Of a DNA stretch of 62,444 nt, positions 12,070-50,402 are shown one piece after another. The DNA is taken from the IMG/VR virus record IMGVR_UViG_3300043640_000318, positions 1 through 62,444 of that record; one strand, 5' to 3'. A program made the translations under genes and the position numbers. This DNA is from a virus. Its lineage: Duplodnaviria > Caudoviricetes. Every line of letters begins with the position of its first letter. Position 1 is the stretch's first letter. The notes under the pieces are model-generated. The model did not search any database, was not told where the DNA came from, and saw only the letters and a list, made by a program, of their open reading frames with translations.

Positions 12070-13623
12070 ATGTACTCCAGCCCCACGGGCCTCTATGAGT
12101 TCCAGGCCGACGGGGTCAGTGTGGCTTACCTGAACCGCAACGTGCTTGCGGCTTTCGACACCGGCCTCGGTAAGACCCATGTCGCGATGGCTCTGGCCGC
12201 CATGCTCTTCGAGGACGACGAGATCGACCTGTGCCTGGTGGTGGCGGAGAAGAACAAGATCCGCGAGTGGCACCAGGACTTCCGCGACTTCACCCGGATG
12301 GACTCTGTGATCTATCACGGGCCCGACCGGGTGAAGCGCGTCTCCAGCGGAGGAACCGGTGGTCCAGGTCGGCCCCGGGTCATCATCTCGACCTACGAGA
12401 CCATCCGCAACGACTGCGCGACCTTCCTCGGGCCAAGGAAGGTCAGGTCCGGCCCGTTCATGGAGCACCTCGACGGCCAGCGTGTCCTGGTGGTCTACGA
12501 CGAGCTCACCAAGCTGGCCACCCGGCGCAGCGCGCTCTACAAGGCGCACGAGTTCATGCTGAAGGAGCTGCGCCGGGCCGATCCCGGCCGGGTGCTCGGG
12601 CTCACCGCCAACCCGTTGACGACGGGCTGGGAGTCGACGTTCAACATGCTGCGGCTGGTCGATCCAGAGCGTATGCCGCCGGTCGGGGTGTTCAACGACA
12701 CCTATGTGCGCTCCCGGGATGACTATAGGCGTCCATATTATAACGACAAGGCCATTCCTCACTTTGTCGCTCTTTGCAGGCCTCTGATCATTCGTAAGCG
12801 CAAGACCGACCCCGACGTCATCGAGCAGTTCCCGAAAAAGGTCGAAGAAGTCGAAGTCATAGAAATGGCCGAAGACCAGCGAAAAATATACAAGCTGATC
12901 GAAGGTTTCGCCTGGGACGACAACGGCGACTACGTCGACATCCCCGGTCTGTGGACGGTGCTGCGCCAGTTCGCCGGTCACCCGGCCGCTCTGGTGGCGG
13001 CGGCCGAGAACGGCGGCTCAGAGCTCGCGTTGCAGCTCGTACAGGGCCTGGGAGTCCTGACCCTGAAGAAGACCTCCTCCGCCAAGACCCAGGCCCTCAT
13101 AGCGCTGCTGAGGAAGGTCAGTGACCAGGGCGACAAGGCACTGGTGTTCAGCTTCTTCGGCCAGACCGTACTGCCGGTACTGGCGGAAGAGCTGAGGCGT
13201 GAGCACTTCAAGGTGTTCGTCCATCACGGAGGGATGACCGAACGCGAGCAGTTCGAGATCCGGCAGGAGTTCAGGGCCTACGCCGGGCCCGCCGTCCTGC
13301 TGAGCTCGGACGCCGGGGCACGGGGCATCAACCTCCCCGAGGCCACCTACGTGATCGAGTACGAGAGCGCCCTAAGCTACTTCCTGCGCGACCAACGCTT
13401 CGGTAGGTCTCATCGGATCGACTCGCGAGCACCCTCCATCACCTGCACCACCATGGTGCTGGAGGGCACGCTCGAACGGGGCATCCTCGACATGGCCCTG
13501 AGCAGGAACGCCCAGCAGGATCAGCTTCTCGGGGACGTCGGCGCAGAGGGCTTCCTCACCGCCGTCGACCGGCGCCGAATGCTCAGCATCGCCCGAGCAC
13601 GCAAGAAGAACCGCGACACCTAA
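12070..13623 (+). CDS. SNF2-family helicase/ATPase
   Basis: LYEFQ, FDTGLGKT, ISTYETIR, VYDELT, LTANP, GARGINL, QRFGRSHR. Confidence 0.88.
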   Translation: MYSSPTGLYEFQADGVSVAYLNRNVLAAFDTGLGKTHVAMALAAMLFEDDEIDLCLVVAEKNKIREWHQDFRDFTRMDSVIYHGPDRVKRVSSGGTGGPGRPRVIISTYETIRNDCATFLGPRKVRSGPFMEHLDGQRVLVVYDELTKLATRRSALYKAHEFMLKELRRADPGRVLGLTANPLTTGWESTFNMLRLVDPERMPPVGVFNDTYVRSRDDYRRPYYNDKAIPHFVALCRPLIIRKRKTDPDVIEQFPKKVEEVEVIEMAEDQRKIYKLIEGFAWDDNGDYVDIPGLWTVLRQFAGHPAALVAAAENGGSELALQLVQGLGVLTLKKTSSAKTQALIALLRKVSDQGDKALVFSFFGQTVLPVLAEELRREHFKVFVHHGGMTEREQFEIRQEFRAYAGPAVLLSSDAGARGINLPEATYVIEYESALSYFLRDQRFGRSHRIDSRAPSITCTTMVLEGTLERGILDMALSRNAQQDQLLGDVGAEGFLTAVDRRRMLSIARARKKNRDT

Positions 13624-14244: not shown

Positions 14245-14629
14245 CCGGCTGCGCGAGCTGCTGGACCGGCAGGTCTACCAGCCGGGTGAATGGTGCTGCG
14301 CCTATGGAGGTCTCATCTGGGAGGGCACCGTCGCCCGGATCTGTGACAAACAGCGGGGCCATACCGATGATCACGACTACCGGGGCATGTCCTTCATGGA
14401 CGCGAAGCCACTGGACATATGCAGCCACTGTGACCGGCAGGTGCGCCCTCAGGAAGCCAGTATCCAGCTCTTCGATCTCCACGTCCCCCTGTGCCATCCG
14501 AGCGATCCCCTGCTGCCGGACTGCTACCGGCGGGTGACGATCTACAAGGAACCTTTGGGAGCCCTGCGGCGCCTGGAAGATCAACCTCCCGGGATAACCG
14601 CCATCCAGCCGGGTACGGCTCTGACATGA
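14231..14629 (+). CDS. Cys/His-rich hypothetical protein
   Basis: GTG after AGGGAG; CD..RGH...H, CSHC, LCHP..CYR. Confidence 0.55.
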   Translation: MGAVDRLRELLDRQVYQPGEWCCAYGGLIWEGTVARICDKQRGHTDDHDYRGMSFMDAKPLDICSHCDRQVRPQEASIQLFDLHVPLCHPSDPLLPDCYRRVTIYKEPLGALRRLEDQPPGITAIQPGTALT

Positions 14630-14697
14630 GCATCTATGGCATTTTGATCATTATCGTGGTCATCCTCCTGGTCCTATTTGTCATTGGACGACTTTGA
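14626..14697 (+). CDS. 23-aa single-TM membrane peptide
   Basis: MSIYGILIIIVVILLVLFVIGRL; ATGA overlap with upstream stop. Confidence 0.55.
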   Translation: MSIYGILIIIVVILLVLFVIGRL

Positions 14698-14701
14698 GGG
14701 C

Positions 14702-14731
14702 TTGCCAAGGTTTCTGAGGCTGTGATAGCTT
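14702..14731 (+). promoter_or_regulatory. sigma70/HrdB-like promoter of the RNA cluster
   Basis: TTGCCA-N18-TAGCTT about 20 nt before the first tRNA-like element. Confidence 0.5.
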
Positions 14732-14752
14732 CCAGGTGTTGGGCAGCAAGGA

Positions 14753-14818
14753 CACAGAAGTGGTGTACGGGCACCCTCCGTCGAGGAGGTGGACCGGGTT
14801 CGATTCCCGGGTCTGTGG
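14753..14818 (+). ncRNA. tRNA-like RNA with truncated anticodon arm (loop GUCGA)
   Basis: CACAGA/TCTGTG acceptor, GGTG/CACC D-stem, CTCC-GTCGA-GGAG, T-arm CCGGG-TTCGATT-CCCGG. Confidence 0.6.
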
Positions 14819-14924
14819 AAAGCGGAAAGCAGTGAAATGGGCTGGCAGGCCCGGGAAGCTCGAAGCCGCTGGTGAAGGGAACGGCCTGCCAGCCATGTCT
14901 CCCAGATCTCCTTGCTCCCCGCGA

Positions 14925-14997
14925 ATCTCGGTAGCTCAATTGGTAGAGCACCCGTCTCCAAAGCGGGTTGTTCCAGGTTCGAGTCCTGGCCGGGGTG
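14925..14997 (+). tRNA. trnW: tRNA-Trp(CCA)
   Basis: Cloverleaf; CCCGT-CTCCAAA-GCGGG; GGTTCGAGTCC. Confidence 0.9.
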
Positions 14998-15208
14998 CGT
15001 AGGAACAGGATCATGCCTATGCCCTCACGGGTACGCACCCTGCGATGGCCCAACCCTGAACGGCATGGGGGGCGAGCCATCGGCCTCTGGCCCGGAGGTG
15101 TCTAGAAAAACGGTCCTTGCGCCGACTCGCGAGGAGGGCACGGTAGGTCGATGGTCAGGGCGTGCACCTCCACAAGCGCACGCCAGCAGCTGCTCAGCGA
15201 TCTATATC

Positions 15209-15295
15209 AGTGCGGTAGCTCAATGTAGAGCCCTTATGGAGCCGGTGTGGACCGGTAGGCTACGGGAGATCCAGGTTCGTACCCTGGTCGCACGC
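15209..15295 (+). ncRNA. tRNA-like RNA with extended anticodon arm
   Basis: GTGCGG/TCGCAC acceptor, D-arm GCTCAATGTAGAGC, T-arm CCAGG-TTCGTAC-CCTGG; anticodon region about 35 nt, capped by CCGGT-GTGG-ACCGG. Confidence 0.65.
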
Positions 15296-15412
15296 GGTTG
15301 GTAGGTAACGCTCTTTCTGGACCCGGCGGATGTGCACTGAAACCGGGCGAGGAAGCAGTCGAACCCCGCCTTGATGTCGCTCGGTCGGCTGTTCGCAGAC
15401 TGGGATGTCATC

Positions 15413-15482
15413 AGCGTCATAGCTCAATGGGCAGAGCTCCCACCACAATGGGTGAACCCGGGTTCGAATCCCGGTGGCGCAC
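15413..15482 (+). ncRNA. tRNA-like RNA (Val CAC-like) with 6-nt anticodon loop
   Basis: GCGTCA/TGGCGC, D-arm GCTCAATGGGCAGAGC, CCCA-CCACAA-TGGG, T-arm CCGGG-TTCGAAT-CCCGG. Confidence 0.65.
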
Positions 15483-15603
15483 GGTTGGAAGGGCAAGAGC
15501 CCCTGCAAGGTCGGTGGAGGTGCACCGAACCCGGCGGCGGAGGGGAAGGAACCCGACCTAGGCATCATGGGCTCCTGCGCGGGGCGCAGAAGTTCATGGT
15601 GGC

Positions 15604-15674
15604 AGCGAGATAGCTCATCAGGTCAGAGCACCCTCGGAAGGGGGAGGTGCCGGGTTCGAGTCCCGGTCTCGCAC
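15604..15674 (+). ncRNA. tRNA-like RNA with GGAA tetraloop in place of the anticodon loop
   Basis: GCGAGA/TCTCGC, D-arm GCTCATCAGGTCAGAGC, CCCTC-GGAA-GGGGG, T-arm CCGGG-TTCGAGT-CCCGG. Confidence 0.65.
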
Positions 15675-15793
15675 GCAGGGACAAGCCCTTCGGGGATGTG
15701 TCCTTCTTGATCCGAACCTGGGTCGCCCTTGAGCGCTTCTGCTCTCTGGGGGGAGAGGTAGTGGCCGCTCGGGCGGCTCAGGTTCGGATGCAA

Positions 15794-15866
15794 GCCTTTT
15801 AGGCTCTCGTGGGAGAGCGCCCGGCTGAAAACCGGGAGTGGCCTGGTTCGACTCCAGGGAGGGGCA
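15794..15866 (+). tRNA. trnF: tRNA-Phe(GAA)
   Basis: CCCGG-CTGAAAA-CCGGG; T-arm CCTGG-TTCGACT-CCAGG; GU-rich acceptor stem. Confidence 0.82.
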
Positions 15867-16052
15867 CGGGGGTAGCGTTCACGGTCTCAGAAATCTGAGT
15901 CGTGCGCTCGAAAGGTACAGTATGCGAATCCGATCCTGGATCACTTGCTCGGCTCGTCCTAGGAAACAGGCCGGTCCAGCCCAGAGGAGGAAGGCGGTGC
16001 CGAGGCCTTAGTCAGGGACTGGCGACTACCCTGAGCCCGCCCGATTTGATCT

Positions 16053-16124
16053 GCTGCACTAGCTCAATGGATAGAGCACCGGTTTACGGAACCGGGTGTC
16101 TGGGTTCGACTCCTGGGTGTAGCG
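16053..16124 (+). tRNA. trnR: tRNA-Arg(ACG)
   Basis: Cloverleaf; CCGGT-TTACGGA-ACCGG. Confidence 0.9.
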
Positions 16125-16250
16125 CGAGAGCTAGGGCCATGATCCGGATCGCGGCCCTTGGACCAGTCGTCCGACCCTCCTCGTCATTCTAGATTCTGAC
16201 GCTGGCAGGGCGGCCCTGGAAGGTCTTGGGAAACCGAGCCGCTCTCCCAA

Positions 16251-16324
16251 TGTCTGGTAGCTCAGTTGGTCAGAGCGCCGTCCTGATAAGACGGAGGTCG
16301 CTGGTTCGAACCCAGCTCAGACAA
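16251..16324 (+). tRNA. trnI: tRNA-Ile(GAT)
   Basis: Cloverleaf; CCGTC-CTGATAA-GACGG. Confidence 0.92.
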
Positions 16325-16325
16325 C

Positions 16326-16397
16326 GGCGCGGTTTCTCGTCGGACGGGCTTCAGCCTGCAAAGCTGATTGACTCGGGTTCGACTCCCGGCTGCGCTT
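16326..16397 (+). tRNA. trnC: tRNA-Cys(GCA)
   Basis: TCAGC-CTGCAAA-GCTGA, GGCGCGG/CTGCGCT acceptor, U discriminator; atypical D-arm. Confidence 0.8.
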
Positions 16398-16501
16398 CGA
16401 CAAATAAATATCTTTGCTCGGATTAACCCCAGGATGTGCCCGTTAGCCTGGTCACTTGGTCCGAGCGTCGGCGGGGTGGCGCACGCCCGTGGTCGGCACA
16501 A

Positions 16502-16574
16502 GGGCCTGTAGCTCCAATGGAAGAGCGCCTCTTTTGCAAGGAGGAAGTTCTCGGTTCGAATCCGAGTGGGTCCA
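16502..16574 (+). tRNA. trnA: tRNA-Ala(TGC)
   Basis: CCTCT-TTTGCAA-GGAGG; G3:U70 identity pair present. Confidence 0.92.
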
Positions 16575-16598
16575 CGGCGACAGTGCGCACTGTCGCAA

Positions 16599-16698
16599 GT
16601 CGAGACATGATCCGGTTCGACTCCGGTCGTGGGAAGCAGTAAGGGTGGCCACCCGACCTGTAGAGGGTTCGATTCCCGATAGGCGTCCATGTCTCGAC
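16599..16698 (+). ncRNA. unknown 100-nt RNA with two T-loop hairpins
   Basis: Closing helix GTCGAGACATG/CATGTCTCGAC; CCGG-TTCGACT-CCGG and GGG-TTCGATT-CCC inside. Confidence 0.6.
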
Positions 16699-16701
16699 GT
16701 T

Positions 16702-16773
16702 GCCGTGTTGGTCTAGTGGAATGACGCCTGATTCTCAGTCAGGAGATCGCGGGTTCGATCCCCGCACACGGTA
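16702..16773 (+). tRNA. trnE: tRNA-Glu(CTC)
   Basis: Cloverleaf; CCTGA-TTCTCAG-TCAGG. Confidence 0.9.
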
Positions 16774-17243
16774 CGGCAGGAGTGCTCCAGAACCCTTACC
16801 TGGAGCTCTGGCTCATGCGAGCCGGGATGCGGAAGCGTACGCGTTGCGGAGAAACGCATCCCGGGGTGGCCTAGGCCGTAGTAGCGGCACCTGCACTCTT
16901 TTCTGAACGCCGCACCTTGACCGAAAGGCGATCATGCCCCCGCGCAACCCCTGCCCCCTGCGCTGTTCGGGAGATGACCCCTGCGGCCTCGGCAACGGTC
17001 ACACTGCCGAGTGTGCCTGCGGTAGCCCCATCGCCTGCGGCTGCGCGCCGCTCCTCCAGCCTGCTGAAGACTGACCTGCCTCAGTGCCCTCGCGCTGGCC
17101 TCGTAGGTGCGAGATACCGCCTGCGCGCTGGCCTGGTAAACGCGACACGGCTTAGCTGTAATGCCTGCGCATGGGCTTCGTGATGCGACGTCACATCGCA
17201 CGTACATGTGACTGCAACGCATGCGACAGATGTCGATGGACCA

Positions 17244-17483
17244 TCAGTCCTCGACGACGGGCACATCTCCACTGAGGCTGAGGGAGACGAACTCGCCCAT
17301 GGCGCCGTTGCGCGGGATCTGGGTGCGGTAGCCGGACATGCTGACCCTCTCCAAGCCCATGTCCTTGGCGAGATCGAGCACGGCGGCGGCGTCCTCCAGG
17401 TACTTTTCGTTCGAGGACTTCAGCTCGGCCTCCTGCCTCTCGTCGAGTCCATCCGTGACGACAACATTTGCACTCCAGGTCAT
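17244..17483 (-). CDS. hypothetical protein
   Basis: ATG (MTWSANV) after RBS GAGAGGA. Confidence 0.65.
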   Translation of the reverse strand: MTWSANVVVTDGLDERQEAELKSSNEKYLEDAAAVLDLAKDMGLERVSMSGYRTQIPRNGAMGEFVSLSLSGDVPVVED

Positions 17484-48216: not shown

Positions 48217-48244
48217 TTGACCGCCAAGGTTCCTGTGGTAGTGT
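48217..48244 (+). promoter_or_regulatory. promoter of Y RNA-Ro operon
   Basis: TTGACC-N16-TAGTGT with extended TG, 10 nt before Y RNA 1; CCAAGGTTCCT in spacer. Confidence 0.6.
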
Positions 48245-48254
48245 CGCTGACATC

Positions 48255-48342
48255 ACCTCCTCGGTGTGAACGGCAGACGGCTACTTCATTTCGATTAACT
48301 CCGAAACGCGAACGCCGTAGCCGGACTTGACCTCGGGGAGGT
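48255..48342 (+). ncRNA. Y RNA-like 1 (minimal)
   Basis: ACCTCCTCG/CGGGGAGGT closing stem; GGTGTGAA...CTACTTC...GACTTGACCTC. Confidence 0.75.
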
Positions 48343-48357
48343 ACAAAAACTTAAATT

Positions 48358-48433
48358 TCTCCGCTGGTGTGCATGTGACGGCTACTTCGATATGACGAAA
48401 AATGCGCCGTCGCGACTCTGATCTCAGCGGAGA
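48358..48433 (+). ncRNA. Y RNA-like 2 (minimal)
   Basis: TCTCCGCTG/CAGCGGAGA; GGTGTGCA...CTACTTC...GACTCTGATCTC. Confidence 0.75.
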
Positions 48434-48445
48434 CAAGCTTCAGCA

Positions 48446-48588
48446 CCTTCCCGGTGTGCAGATCACAGTTACTTCATTCGGAACTGATAGTCGCGGGTTC
48501 GAATCCCGTCGAGGGCTCCAGGGTCCTCGTAGCTCAGCCTGGTAGAGCGTCAGTCTTTGTACTGTGGTCGATTTTGATCTCGGGAGGG
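48446..48588 (+). ncRNA. yrlA: YrlA-type Y RNA with circularly permuted tRNA domain
   Basis: CCTTCCCG/CGGGAGGG; T-arm GCGGG-TTCGAAT-CCCGT, closed acceptor CGAGGGC..GTCCTCG, D-arm TAGCTCAGCCTGGTAGAGC; upstream of Ro60. Confidence 0.88.
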
Positions 48589-48602
48589 GACAACTTCAGA
48601 GC

Positions 48603-48732
48603 GTTCCTGGTGTGCAGGCGAGGGCTACTTCTTTCTGCAAAAAAGGATCTCCGGGTTCGACTCCCGGTCCAGCCCGTAAGGGTTGGGGCCAAGGCGGCGA
48701 TAGCTATCTCTCACCGACTTGACCTCAGGAAC
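48603..48732 (+). ncRNA. Y RNA-like 4 with T-arm and closed acceptor stem, degenerate D-arm
   Basis: GTTCCTG/CAGGAAC; CCGGG-TTCGACT-CCCGG; CCAGCCC-GTAA-GGGTTGG; shared motifs. Confidence 0.8.
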
Positions 48733-48743
48733 CCACTCTTGAC

Positions 48744-48778
48744 GAACTCCTCTCCCGTCCCCTCGGAGAGGAGTTTTT
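48744..48778 (+). terminator. terminator-like hairpin containing the Ro60 RBS
   Basis: GAACTCCTCTCC/GGAGAGGAGTTT followed by TT, ending 2 nt before ATG. Confidence 0.6.
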
Positions 48779-48779
48779 C

Positions 48780-50402
48780 ATGTCCAAGTTCAACCGCAAC
48801 GGCCCGAGCACCCGCCAGACCAACCCGGTGGTGAGCGTCAAGGCACCGCAGGCCCGTACCCACGGTGGCGCCCCGGCCTACGAGCGTGACGCCAAGGGCG
48901 AGCTGTTCATGCTCGCCATCAGCAACCTCGTGGGGGAGAAGACCTTCTACGAGAGCGCCGGTGAGCGGGACGACCGCTTCAGCGCGCTGGTCCACCAGGT
49001 CGCCCTCGACGACCCGAAGTGGCTGTTCAGCATGCTGAACTGGCTGCGCGGTGAGTCCAACATGCGCAGCGCGGCCCTGGTCGGCGCGGCCGAGATGGTC
49101 AAGGCACGGATCGACGCAGGTGTCAGCGGTAAGGACGCCCCGGAGGAAGGTGGCCGCAGCTACGACCGCATGGCCATCGACGCGGTCTGCCTGCGGGCGG
49201 ACGAGCCGGGTGAGCTGCTGGCCTACTGGATCGGCAAGTACGGCCGTCCGGTCCCGAAGCCGATCAAGCGTGGTCTCTCCGACGCTGCCAAGCGGCTCTA
49301 CAACGAGCGCAACCTCCTGAAGTACGACACCGCCACGAGCGCGTTCAGGTTCGGTGACGTCCTGGAGTTCGCCCGGCCGAAGCCGGTCGGCATCTCCCAG
49401 AGCAGGCTGTTCAAGTACGCCATCGAGAACCGGCACAAGCGCACCATCGACATGGTGGAGCTCGGCCTGCCGATGATCCAGGCGAACCACTTCCTGCGCA
49501 ACGCCGCCGCTCGTGACCCGAGGGCGCTGCTCGACTCCGACGCGCTGAAGGGCGCGGGGATGACCTGGGAGGACCTGCTGAGCCTGGCAGGCACCAAGGT
49601 GAGCAAGGCGGACCTGTGGGAGGCCATGGTCCCCGCCATGGGCTACATGGGCCTGCTGCGGAACCTGCGCAACTTCGATGAGGCGGGGATCTCCAACCAG
49701 GTCGTCAGGTACGTCGGCGGCCGTCTGGAGGACCCGGTGCAGGTCGCCGGATCCCGTCAGCTGCCGATGAGGTTCCTGTCGGCCTACCGGGCGGCTCCGA
49801 GCCTGAAGTGGGGTCCGTACCTGGAGGTCGCACTGGACGCGTGCCTGGGCAGCATCCCGGTCGTGAAGGGCCGCACGCTGGTCCTGATCGACACCTCGGC
49901 CTCCATGCAGGCCATGATGAGCGAGCGTTCCAAGCTCCAGATGTGGGACGCGGCGGTGGTCTTCGGGCTGGCACTGGCCCGCCGGTGTGAAAGCGCCGAC
50001 GTGGTCTCCTTCTCGGACAACTACTGGAACAGCAGCGAGGGCACCAAGGTCTTCCATCCGGCCAAGGGTGGCTCGCTGCTCAAAGACATCGACCGGTGGT
50101 CCCAGGACGGCTACAACATCTTCGGCGGGACCGAGACCGCCGGAGCGGTCAGGCGGCACTTCGCCGACCACGACCGGGTCATCATCCTCACCGACGAGCA
50201 GTCCACCAGCGGCAGTGATGTCGATGCCGCAGTCCCGGACAACAAGACCCTGATCACCTTCAACCTGGCTGGTTACAAGCGCGGCCACGCCCGTTCTGGC
50301 ACCGCTCACCGGATCACCATCGGTGGCCTGTCGGACGCCGGGTTCAAGCTGATCCCGATCCTGGAGAGCCGCTCCAAGGGCCTGTGGCCCTGGGAGCTGT
50401 AG
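48780..50402 (+). CDS. rsr: Ro60/Rsr TROVE-domain RNA-binding protein with vWA domain
   Basis: THGGAPAY, EKTFYE, LRGESNMRS, RADEPGE, LLKYD, MTWE, LLRNLRN, SRQLPMRF, LIDTSASM, GGTET, IILTDEQ. Confidence 0.95.
   Translation: MSKFNRNGPSTRQTNPVVSVKAPQARTHGGAPAYERDAKGELFMLAISNLVGEKTFYESAGERDDRFSALVHQVALDDPKWLFSMLNWLRGESNMRSAALVGAAEMVKARIDAGVSGKDAPEEGGRSYDRMAIDAVCLRADEPGELLAYWIGKYGRPVPKPIKRGLSDAAKRLYNERNLLKYDTATSAFRFGDVLEFARPKPVGISQSRLFKYAIENRHKRTIDMVELGLPMIQANHFLRNAAARDPRALLDSDALKGAGMTWEDLLSLAGTKVSKADLWEAMVPAMGYMGLLRNLRNFDEAGISNQVVRYVGGRLEDPVQVAGSRQLPMRFLSAYRAAPSLKWGPYLEVALDACLGSIPVVKGRTLVLIDTSASMQAMMSERSKLQMWDAAVVFGLALARRCESADVVSFSDNYWNSSEGTKVFHPAKGGSLLKDIDRWSQDGYNIFGGTETAGAVRRHFADHDRVIILTDEQSTSGSDVDAAVPDNKTLITFNLAGYKRGHARSGTAHRITIGGLSDAGFKLIPILESRSKGLWPWEL

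Follow-up and report, generated by a model that had tools for sequence, protein, structure and literature searches.

Several kinds of non-decoding RNA are built from, or resemble, parts of tRNA. Large lytic phages encode structured RNAs other than tRNAs among their tRNA genes, examples being the species 1 and species 2 RNAs of T4 and the tRNA-like stable RNA of T5. These RNAs are released by tRNA processing; to our knowledge they have no established function, and we know of no two-T-arm layout among their features. Plant mitochondrial t-elements and mascRNA are tRNA-like processing signals, typically with a stacked 12-bp acceptor/T-stem, and typical tRNA fragments are 3' halves found at integration sites. 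According to the account in PMC9897764, fragments of tRNA genes are a frequent feature of prokaryote genomes.

The bacterial Y RNAs hold a T-arm inside a domain that is closed by a long helix; in the YrlA group, as PMC4201824 describes it, nearly all members lie within 4 kb of rsr on the same strand, and the motif GNCGAA(N)G, close to the 5' end, is a further mark of the group. A second well-described use of T-loops is in the platforms of RNase P, the T-box, and the L1 stalk, where two pentanucleotide T-loops interdigitate head-to-tail. In the description given in PMC4810234, the loops of such double T-loop modules are adjacent parts of one compact module.

Here we describe a 100-nt element in the tRNA array of a tailed phage that shares features with each of these systems. 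The IMG/VR virus record in which it lies was analyzed whole (62,444 bases, hereafter "the window"; completeness estimate, 40%). Our preferred interpretation, to which we would give a probability of roughly 0.4, is that the element is a tRNA-derived, non-decoding, clamp-closed structured spacer of the tRNA operon that is released by tRNA processing.

Anatomy of the element and of its array

The element occupies one spacer of a one-strand array of nine tRNA genes (14925-16774, plus strand, as called by ARAGORN), and its features and immediate neighbors are listed in Table 1. Its first 11 nt, GTCGAGACATG (16599-16609), are the exact reverse complement of its last 11 nt, CATGTCTCGAC (16688-16698), and the perfect 11-bp helix that these form encloses two T-loop sequences with complementary flanks, GGTTCGACTCC at 16614-16624 and GGTTCGATTCC at 16666-16676. 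The T-stems are CCGG/CCGG (4 bp) and GGG/CCC (3 bp), each with fewer than five Watson-Crick pairs. A sequence-only reading of this stretch had described an 11-bp closing helix around two T-loop hairpins, without a D-arm or an anticodon arm and ending 3 nt before tRNA-Glu, and all of this is confirmed by the sequence (tRNA-Glu starts at 16702). Three further features had gone unmentioned, namely the hairpin upstream of the closing helix, the central palindromic hairpin (16643-16654), and an extension of the second T-arm.

This second arm can lengthen via a tandem G.A/A.G and a 3×3 internal loop to GAC/GTC, and in the minimum free energy (MFE) structure the lengthened form is an irregular arm of 13 positions that abuts the closing helix. 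The element is thereby predicted to be a four-way junction of cloverleaf topology that lacks both D-arm and anticodon arm, and because these two arms are missing, it cannot decode.

Table 1. Features of the 100-nt element and of the genes on either side
Feature	Position	Strand	Basis
tRNA-Ala(tgc), upstream neighbor, without encoded CCA	16502..16575	+	ARAGORN; Rfam tRNA, 55.6 bits
8-bp palindromic hairpin, straight after tRNA-Ala and 2 nt 5' of the closing helix	16577..16596	+	Fold; minus-strand self-match
Closing helix, 5' strand, perfect 11 bp	16599..16609	+	Sequence; pair probabilities 0.96-1.0
T-arm-like hairpin 1, stem CCGG/CCGG, 7-nt loop TTCGACT	16612..16626	+	Sequence, T-loop pattern; probability 0.04-0.05
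Central palindromic hairpin, 4 bp, 4-nt loop	16643..16654	+	Fold, probability 0.81-0.93; counterpart in G039
Arm 3 (T-arm 2), core 16665-16677 GGG / TTCGATT / CCC	16655..16687	+	MFE; core probability 0.59, outer pairs 0.13-0.24
Closing helix, 3' strand	16688..16698	+	Sequence; pair probabilities
tRNA-Glu(ctc), downstream neighbor, starts 3 nt past the helix	16702..16774	+	ARAGORN; Rfam tRNA, 62.3 bits

CCA is unencoded in all the tRNA genes of the array that we read (Trp, Phe, Arg, Ile, Cys, Ala, and Glu). Precursors of this kind are cut endonucleolytically at their 3' ends and receive CCA later, so the tRNAs of this array would be expected to follow the same route. A scan of 14300-17400 found no terminator-like site, and no promoter-like site within the array; one weak promoter-like site was found at 14343, outside it. 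The spacers examined are long (103-185 nt) and folded, and for the seven inter-tRNA and trailing spacers tested the fold z ranges from -0.68 to -6.43, with four at or below -2.2. The most extreme value (z = -6.43) is that of 15675-15793, a very long near-perfect hairpin that follows the second of the two odd tRNA-like genes described below on its 3' side. The Arg>Ile spacer (16126-16250, z = -2.26) has a terminal helix closing three hairpins; at 16138-16151 it also carries a 14-nt near-repeat of the start of the element (16606-16619), beyond which we found nothing that would count as an internal paralogue.

Other tRNA-shaped sequences occur in the same array. Two genes, 15413-15482 and 15604-15674, score above the Rfam tRNA threshold (41.7 and 39.9 bits) and recur at an interval of 192 nt. 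Pair 1:72 is an A.A mismatch in each of the two, and owing to their shortened anticodon loops ARAGORN assigns them two-letter "anticodons," a kind of call that it also makes in two unrelated viral loci (L027 and L031). Judged by their sequences, they look like non-decoding tRNA-like RNAs. A tRNA-shaped stretch at 15211-15296 has a D-arm, an acceptor stem, the T-loop variant GGTTCGTACC, and an aberrant middle and is not called by ARAGORN, and an orphan T-arm (14787-14809) lies upstream of tRNA-Trp.

Stability of the fold and expectation by chance

Nearest-neighbor folding gave the pair probabilities of Table 1, which are highest for the closing helix, high for the central hairpin, intermediate for the second T-arm, and very low for the first. 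The probability of the first T-arm is low because a competing pairing is better by 3.4 kcal/mol (-36.3 kcal/mol for the two-T-arm structure versus -39.7 for the MFE), under an energy model that takes no account of T-loop tertiary contacts. The fold z of the 100 nt is -1.66, with 14 of 200 shuffles equally good; when the upstream hairpin (16577-16596) is included, z becomes -2.70, and a single shuffle out of 200 does equally well.

The features of the element exceed chance. Within the window the T-loop pattern GTTCRANYC occurs 25 times, compared with 7.9 ± 2.8 in shuffles (largest, 15), and its matches, two of which fall within the 100 nt, are clustered in the tRNA array and beside rsr. When perfect inverted repeats of 11 nt are counted over loop lengths of 3-100 nt, the window has 51 pairs (about 22 sites), versus 3.4 ± 2.3 in 50 local shuffles. 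This 15-fold excess indicates that such helices are a genuine feature of the genome and that the helix of the element is not unique but one of about 22 sites. T-loop motifs between tRNA genes are likewise common, and alone they are no evidence of a tRNA-binding platform.

Tests against known RNA families

None of the nine tRNA genes that ARAGORN finds in the window lies within 16599-16698. The Rfam comparison that had been suggested along with the sequence-only reading yielded no family match in the element: at the gathering score there were nine matches in the window, all of them tRNA and all outside the element, and at E ≤ 10 over 14700-17000 there were 22, a single one of which (SpF41, E = 6.2, 16500-16604) touches the element, at its first bases. 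A tRNA identity was rejected, there being no RF00005 match at the gathering score or at E ≤ 10 and position 8 being C, not U. Also rejected was a minihelix processing mimic of the t-element or mascRNA type. There is no continuous stack of about 12 bp leading from the 5' end to a T-loop; T-loop 2 is about 24 stacked positions away and T-loop 1 about 16, behind a bulge. The weak mascRNA matches of 14700-17000 fall outside the element. A miniature inverted-repeat mobile element was rejected as well, since the sequence is present as a single copy in the 62-kb record (about 40% complete) and its flanks, AA on one side and GTT on the other, show no target-site duplication. By title and abstract, the papers returned by a full-text literature search describe no RNA with two T-arms in the tRNA arrays of phages.

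The phage encodes a TROVE (Rsr/Ro60) protein (48780-50402, plus strand), and it is conceivable on that account that the element is a YrlA-like ligand of this protein. In the bacterial Y RNAs, too, a long helix closes the domain that holds the T-arm (PMC4201824), and the GTCGAG of the 5' strand matches five of the six fixed-length positions of GNCGAA. We nevertheless regard this identification as extremely improbable. The element has no D-arm and lies 32 kb from rsr, as opposed to the 4 kb or so within which YrlA are found in the same source (PMC4201824). A search of 14700-17000 with RF02553 (YrlA) at E ≤ 10 gave no match, while the same library finds a YrlA-like tRNA-like domain at 48485-48552, with 43.6 bits and E 4.8e-8, short of the gathering score (69). 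TROVE is encoded by 4 of 45 relatives (G012, G023, G026, and G028) and is absent from G001 and G039, both 100% complete, which carry the look-alikes described below. The lack of rsr in these two genomes argues that the element is not a Y RNA.

The surroundings of rsr (48229-50402) hold more than this domain, which lies directly upstream of the gene. Also upstream are about four repeated units that share GGTGTGCA and GCTACTTC-like blocks, with an extra T-arm at 48650-48670, and this cluster probably represents the phage's own Y RNAs.

The phage and its relatives

The sole sequencing run found to contain the stretch is a soil metagenome, probably the source sample, and no RNA run is listed as containing it. 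At 80% likeness, the contigs of that run include one full-length contig, in which the element has no differences; elsewhere in the run there are merely tRNA-sized pieces from other organisms. Genes near the element include a SNF2-type helicase (12070-13623) and a minor tail protein. Megablast with 14800-17000 found no match in cultured phages, and tblastn with the helicase returned 237 records, every one at less than 60% identity. As a single query against viral contigs the helicase found no relatives; relatives were recovered with an alignment of 28 helicases, which gave 48 viral contigs at 32-50% identity, many of them 150-166 kb long. Helicase relatives also occur in Streptomyces assemblies, on contigs of about 150-157 kb (L296-L299), one of which carries the annotation of a complete plasmid. 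The hosts of the group may therefore be Streptomyces, and a phage-plasmid lifestyle is a further possibility. The occurrence of these relatives on large viral and Streptomyces contigs makes the phage a member of a group of large actinophage-like genomes.

The nearest helicase, at 78% identity, is on P0002, a Logan contig of 49,905 nt. Among the 48 related viral records that were compared (19 of them at least 90% complete), the nearest is G001, with a helicase identity of 50%, and the arrays of G001 and of the present phage have no common sequence except tRNA-Ile.

Candidate relatives and signs of tRNA descent

Searches by sequence found no counterpart of the element. Sensitive blastn with 126 nt returned 44 records, none covering more than 25% of the query and all with E ≥ 1, and an exact 24-mer of the element is absent from viral contigs. 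Two T-loops at the element's spacing were found in 8 of the 48 related records (12 matches, versus 1 with a reversed-pattern control), most of these matches being a tRNA plus a mini-element. In G001, an analogue lies 3' of tRNA-Phe, in which a GC-rich hairpin is followed after 2-3 nt by a 6-bp closing helix; inside are two canonical T-arms with a hairpin between them, the same layout as in the element. Neither of the covariance models introduced below recovered the G001 analogue, so its kinship is one of layout alone.

A covariance model of the element alone, run over 964 kb of related loci, identified a candidate in G039 (L331:4638-4737, 29.4 bits, rough E 1e-3), with the runner-up at 22.4 bits. 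The candidate, likewise of 100 nt, is flanked by tRNA-Phe and tRNA-Gly(tcc). Its closing helix has 10 bp, its hairpins are at equivalent places, one of them being a central palindromic hairpin, and upstream there is another hairpin followed by 4 nt. A GC-rich hairpin 2-4 nt 5' of the closing helix, a feature that is outside the covariance model, is thus found in the element, G039, and G001. By hand count, about 48 of 100 positions are identical between the element and the G039 candidate, mostly within the hairpins. In an alignment fitted to the structure, 98.1% of cells pair (slid controls, 32-46%), and 11 of 28 pairs are doubly changed, 6 of them in the closing helix; none of 500 shuffles reaches these values. 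Structure appears, from these two sequences, to have been kept while sequence drifted.

Homology of the element with the G039 candidate is unproven. Unrelated two-T-loop loci reach up to 26.4 bits with the two-sequence model (200 of 244 loci scanned), and over the 48 whole records this model found nothing beyond G039 and one match at E 0.99. A search of viral contigs with a pattern of shared blocks returned G039 only. Conservation of the element among the 48 related records is thin.

The G039 candidate does carry signs of its own origin. At 10 of 11 positions its 5' strand is identical to the 5' end of the neighboring tRNA-Phe, and none of the 366 tRNAs compared scores higher; its second hairpin nearly equals the T-arm of the next gene, tRNA-Gly(tcc); these likenesses indicate that the G039 element was assembled from tRNA parts. 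The 5' strand of the present element resembles no tRNA (best, 6/11 against the 5' ends of the 366), so that in this case we infer tRNA origin from the T-arms and the layout. The G039 candidate thus looks in part like the split tRNA remnant that the sequence-only reading had named as a competing identity.

The syntenic Phe>Gly spacer holds variants of the same idea in other relatives. In G011 and G015 it has a hairpin and, after it, a helix-closed module that contains a single T-arm, and in G010, G018, and G033 it has a mini-cloverleaf made of an acceptor-like helix and a T-arm. The conserved theme is an acceptor-like clamp together with one or more T-arms, the middle being free to vary, and related arrays are rich in further T-arm-bearing modules that are not tRNAs. 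As a separate observation, at L303, L304, L308, L312, and L313 (in G033, G036, G018, and G011) tRNAs are followed without a gap by an element of about 40 nt that starts with CGAGG or CGG and has its own T-arm; this appended element is present in many unrelated viral contigs as well.

These findings also give some encouragement to a neutral explanation, in which a recent rearrangement or duplication of tRNA parts left T-arms between the halves of an accidental or hitch-hiking inverted repeat and no role was ever selected, the RNA being transcribed and then discarded. Of the 48 relatives, 46 lack the element, the G039 candidate is visibly chimeric, being made of adjoining tRNA parts, T-arm 1 is not the favored fold and z is modest (-1.66), and tRNA gene fragments are, as noted at the outset, common in prokaryotes (PMC9897764). 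We consider a neutral relic somewhat unlikely all the same. A perfect 11-bp helix together with two perfect 11-nt matches to the T-loop would be unlikely to persist unselected, and if G039 is related, 11 pairs have survived through double changes. Closing helices are, moreover, enriched in other two-T-arm elements, as detailed in the next section.

The loops of the G039 candidate, TGTGACT and TCCGACT, keep the equivalents of U54, G57, and A58 and are changed at position 55. (The ARAGORN-accepted tRNA-Gly(tcc) of the same locus, L331 4831-4902, has the T-loop TCCGATT, with C at the usual U55.) This pattern of retention bears on the idea that the element acts in trans, as a stable tRNA mimic: once excised, the doubly clamped RNA would be a sponge, decoy, or scaffold for proteins that read T-arms, and its targets could be the enzymes that form Psi55 or m5U54, RNase P, the CCA-adding enzyme, or a defense nuclease of the host that attacks tRNA. 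The design, with a 5' hairpin and with ends locked in an 11-bp helix, would suit stability. Both loops have the full T-loop consensus, G039 keeps three of its key positions, the architecture recurs widely, and the phage has other tRNA-like RNAs (the Y RNA-like units by rsr and the two genes with shortened anticodon loops). Conservation is thin, though, no partner is in view, and position 55, on which Psi55 synthase acts, has changed in G039. Overall, a trans-acting mimic seems to us unlikely.

The two-T-arm layout elsewhere

A loose pattern of two T-loops 26-56 nt apart matched at least 124 stretches in viral contigs, and a narrower one with the element's own loop sequences matched at least 120 stretches in metagenome contigs; the metagenome matches listed include no sequence relatives of the element. 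In 53 of the 126 viral matches listed, the first T-loop belongs to an ordinary tRNA, and a short T-arm-bearing element follows behind it. A terminal helix encloses both T-arms in L025 (20 bp), L132 and L175 (19 bp each), and L209 (17 bp), and helix closure is also seen in a "tagtcag" family, which recurs, and in a high-GC family (L150, L177, L191, and L217).

Enrichment was measured on 129 nonredundant matches, among those listed, in which neither arm belongs to a tRNA called by ARAGORN. Of these 129, 19 have a helix of 8 bp or more that starts 0-2 nt past the second T-stem, versus 4.2 ± 1.8 when flanks are permuted (largest count over 200 permutations, 10), and a helix of at least 7 bp is present in 33, versus 10.1 ± 2.7. 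Closing helices are thus 3-5 times more frequent than in permuted controls among the viral and metagenome matches listed, which argues that the layout recurs in nature. The recurring elements resemble the present one in their T-loops alone, and shared descent is not implied. An Rfam search of 40 two-T-arm loci matched no family and gave two weak hits to the tRNA model with large insertions (L068 and L029). We refer provisionally to "helix-closed two-T-arm elements," defined by a terminal helix around a T-arm, a small hairpin, and a T-arm and by a place within or close to a tRNA array, a class that does not imply common descent and that takes in the present element as well as G039, G001, L025, L132, L175, L209, and the high-GC family.

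Two of the groups encountered in this search merit description. In the high-GC family the closing helix covaries among members, with one conserved G.A mismatch; its members have no Rfam match and are not beside tRNA genes. Around L150 and L191 the gene context consists of ankyrin and YCII domains only, and these genes flank one copy. The other is an array of at least 10 units in G023 (L271, 12380-15480), with two protein genes inside and no unit called by ARAGORN. Each unit combines, in this order, GGCNNGGC-like short-repeat runs, an acceptor/T-arm minihelix of about 40 nt, and a small hairpin, in a genome that encodes TROVE.

These results leave the earlier proposal of a new RNA class half standing: the element has no Rfam or ARAGORN identity and its layout recurs, but conservation is thin, extending to 2 of the 48 related records. 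A more ambitious version would unite the present element, G039, G001, and dozens of metagenomic examples as members of a widespread, uncatalogued RNA class of phages and some bacteria, in which a T-arm replaces the D- or anticodon arm and elbow-like or interdigitated T-loops make the RNA a trans-acting decoy, sponge, or binder of the tRNA elbow. Such a class strikes us as quite improbable.

The same holds with greater force for the more specific structural proposal of the sequence-only reading, an interdigitated T-loop platform that sits on the tRNA elbow or a mimic of two elbows. Two T-loop consensus sequences do occur in one closed domain, and a review of the motif expects further examples (PMC4810234). 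The known platforms, however, use head-to-tail pentanucleotide loops in one compact module (PMC4810234), whereas the loops here are predicted to cap different arms, one of about 4-5 positions and the other of about 13, and for this reason are unlikely to meet without a sharp bend. The low predicted probability of T-arm 1 (0.05) and the distance of 41 nt between the loops weigh against it too, as does G039, where the second and third loop positions are altered in one loop or in both. Rfam gave no T-box or RNase P match, and no specifier-like or tRNA-pairing segment was identified. We therefore rate a platform or double elbow as very unlikely.

A proposed spacer released by tRNA processing

The interpretation that we prefer can be stated as a series of steps. 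The element would be cotranscribed with the tRNAs, being on the same strand of an array that has no internal promoter-like or terminator-like site. Host 3' processing would cut behind the discriminator of the CCA-less tRNA-Ala, and RNase P would cut at the 5' end of tRNA-Glu, its presumed site. The product would be an RNA of about 126 nt made up of the hairpin at 16577-16596 and the 100-nt four-way junction, in which an acceptor-like helix lengthened to 11 bp encloses two T-arm-like hairpins and a small central one. Fold, rather than sequence, would be maintained. The role would be exerted in cis, by a self-contained spacer that keeps neighboring tRNAs from mispairing and that offers defined single-stranded junctions of 2 nt and 3 nt to the processing enzymes, with a nuclease-resistant by-product left over.

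This reading is supported by the folded spacers of the array, the tRNA descent of the G039 candidate, the paired double changes, the upstream hairpins, and the T-arm modules of related arrays. Against it, a perfect helix with perfect T-loops could equally fit a young neutral relic or a selected RNA that acts in trans.

The spacers of large-phage tRNA arrays are usually ignored, yet the present array and its relatives hold many folded, tRNA-derived modules that annotation tools do not report. If the two-T-arm layout is selected, it would be a new kind of tRNA mimic in phage biology and might also have a part in tRNA processing or in the contest with host defenses that target tRNA. If it is instead a relic, it would be a record of how tRNA arrays evolve by the shuffling of acceptor and T-arm parts.

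Comparison with known systems

The likeness to YrlA is considerable. Both RNAs are about 100 nt long, have ends that form a long helix around a multi-hairpin domain with a tRNA-type T-arm, do not decode, and are encoded by actinophages, among others. They differ in that YrlA combines one T-arm with a D-arm and an acceptor-like hairpin, whereas the element has two T-arm-like hairpins and no D-arm; they differ also in that YrlA, with its GNCGAA motif, sits beside rsr, whereas the element is 32 kb away and has look-alikes in phages without rsr. With T-box Stem I, RNase P, and the L1 stalk the element shares the presence of two T-loop consensus sequences in one folded domain. Those platforms are built from 5-nt T-loops that interlock head-to-tail in neighboring internal or terminal loops; the element has two tRNA-type 7-nt hairpin loops, 41 nt apart and on separate arms.

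Like tRNA fragments, t-elements, and mascRNA, the element is made of tRNA parts, does not decode, and lies in a transcript of the kind that RNase P and RNase Z cut. It differs from the processing mimics in that a four-way junction follows the 11-bp helix and in that the nearer of the two T-loops does not lie 12 bp away from the end. With the RNAs of the T4 and T5 tRNA clusters it would share its place among phage tRNA genes and its release by tRNA processing. Taken together, these comparisons leave the element uncatalogued, and we regard it most readily as a further variant of the tRNA-derived structured elements that abound in these arrays.
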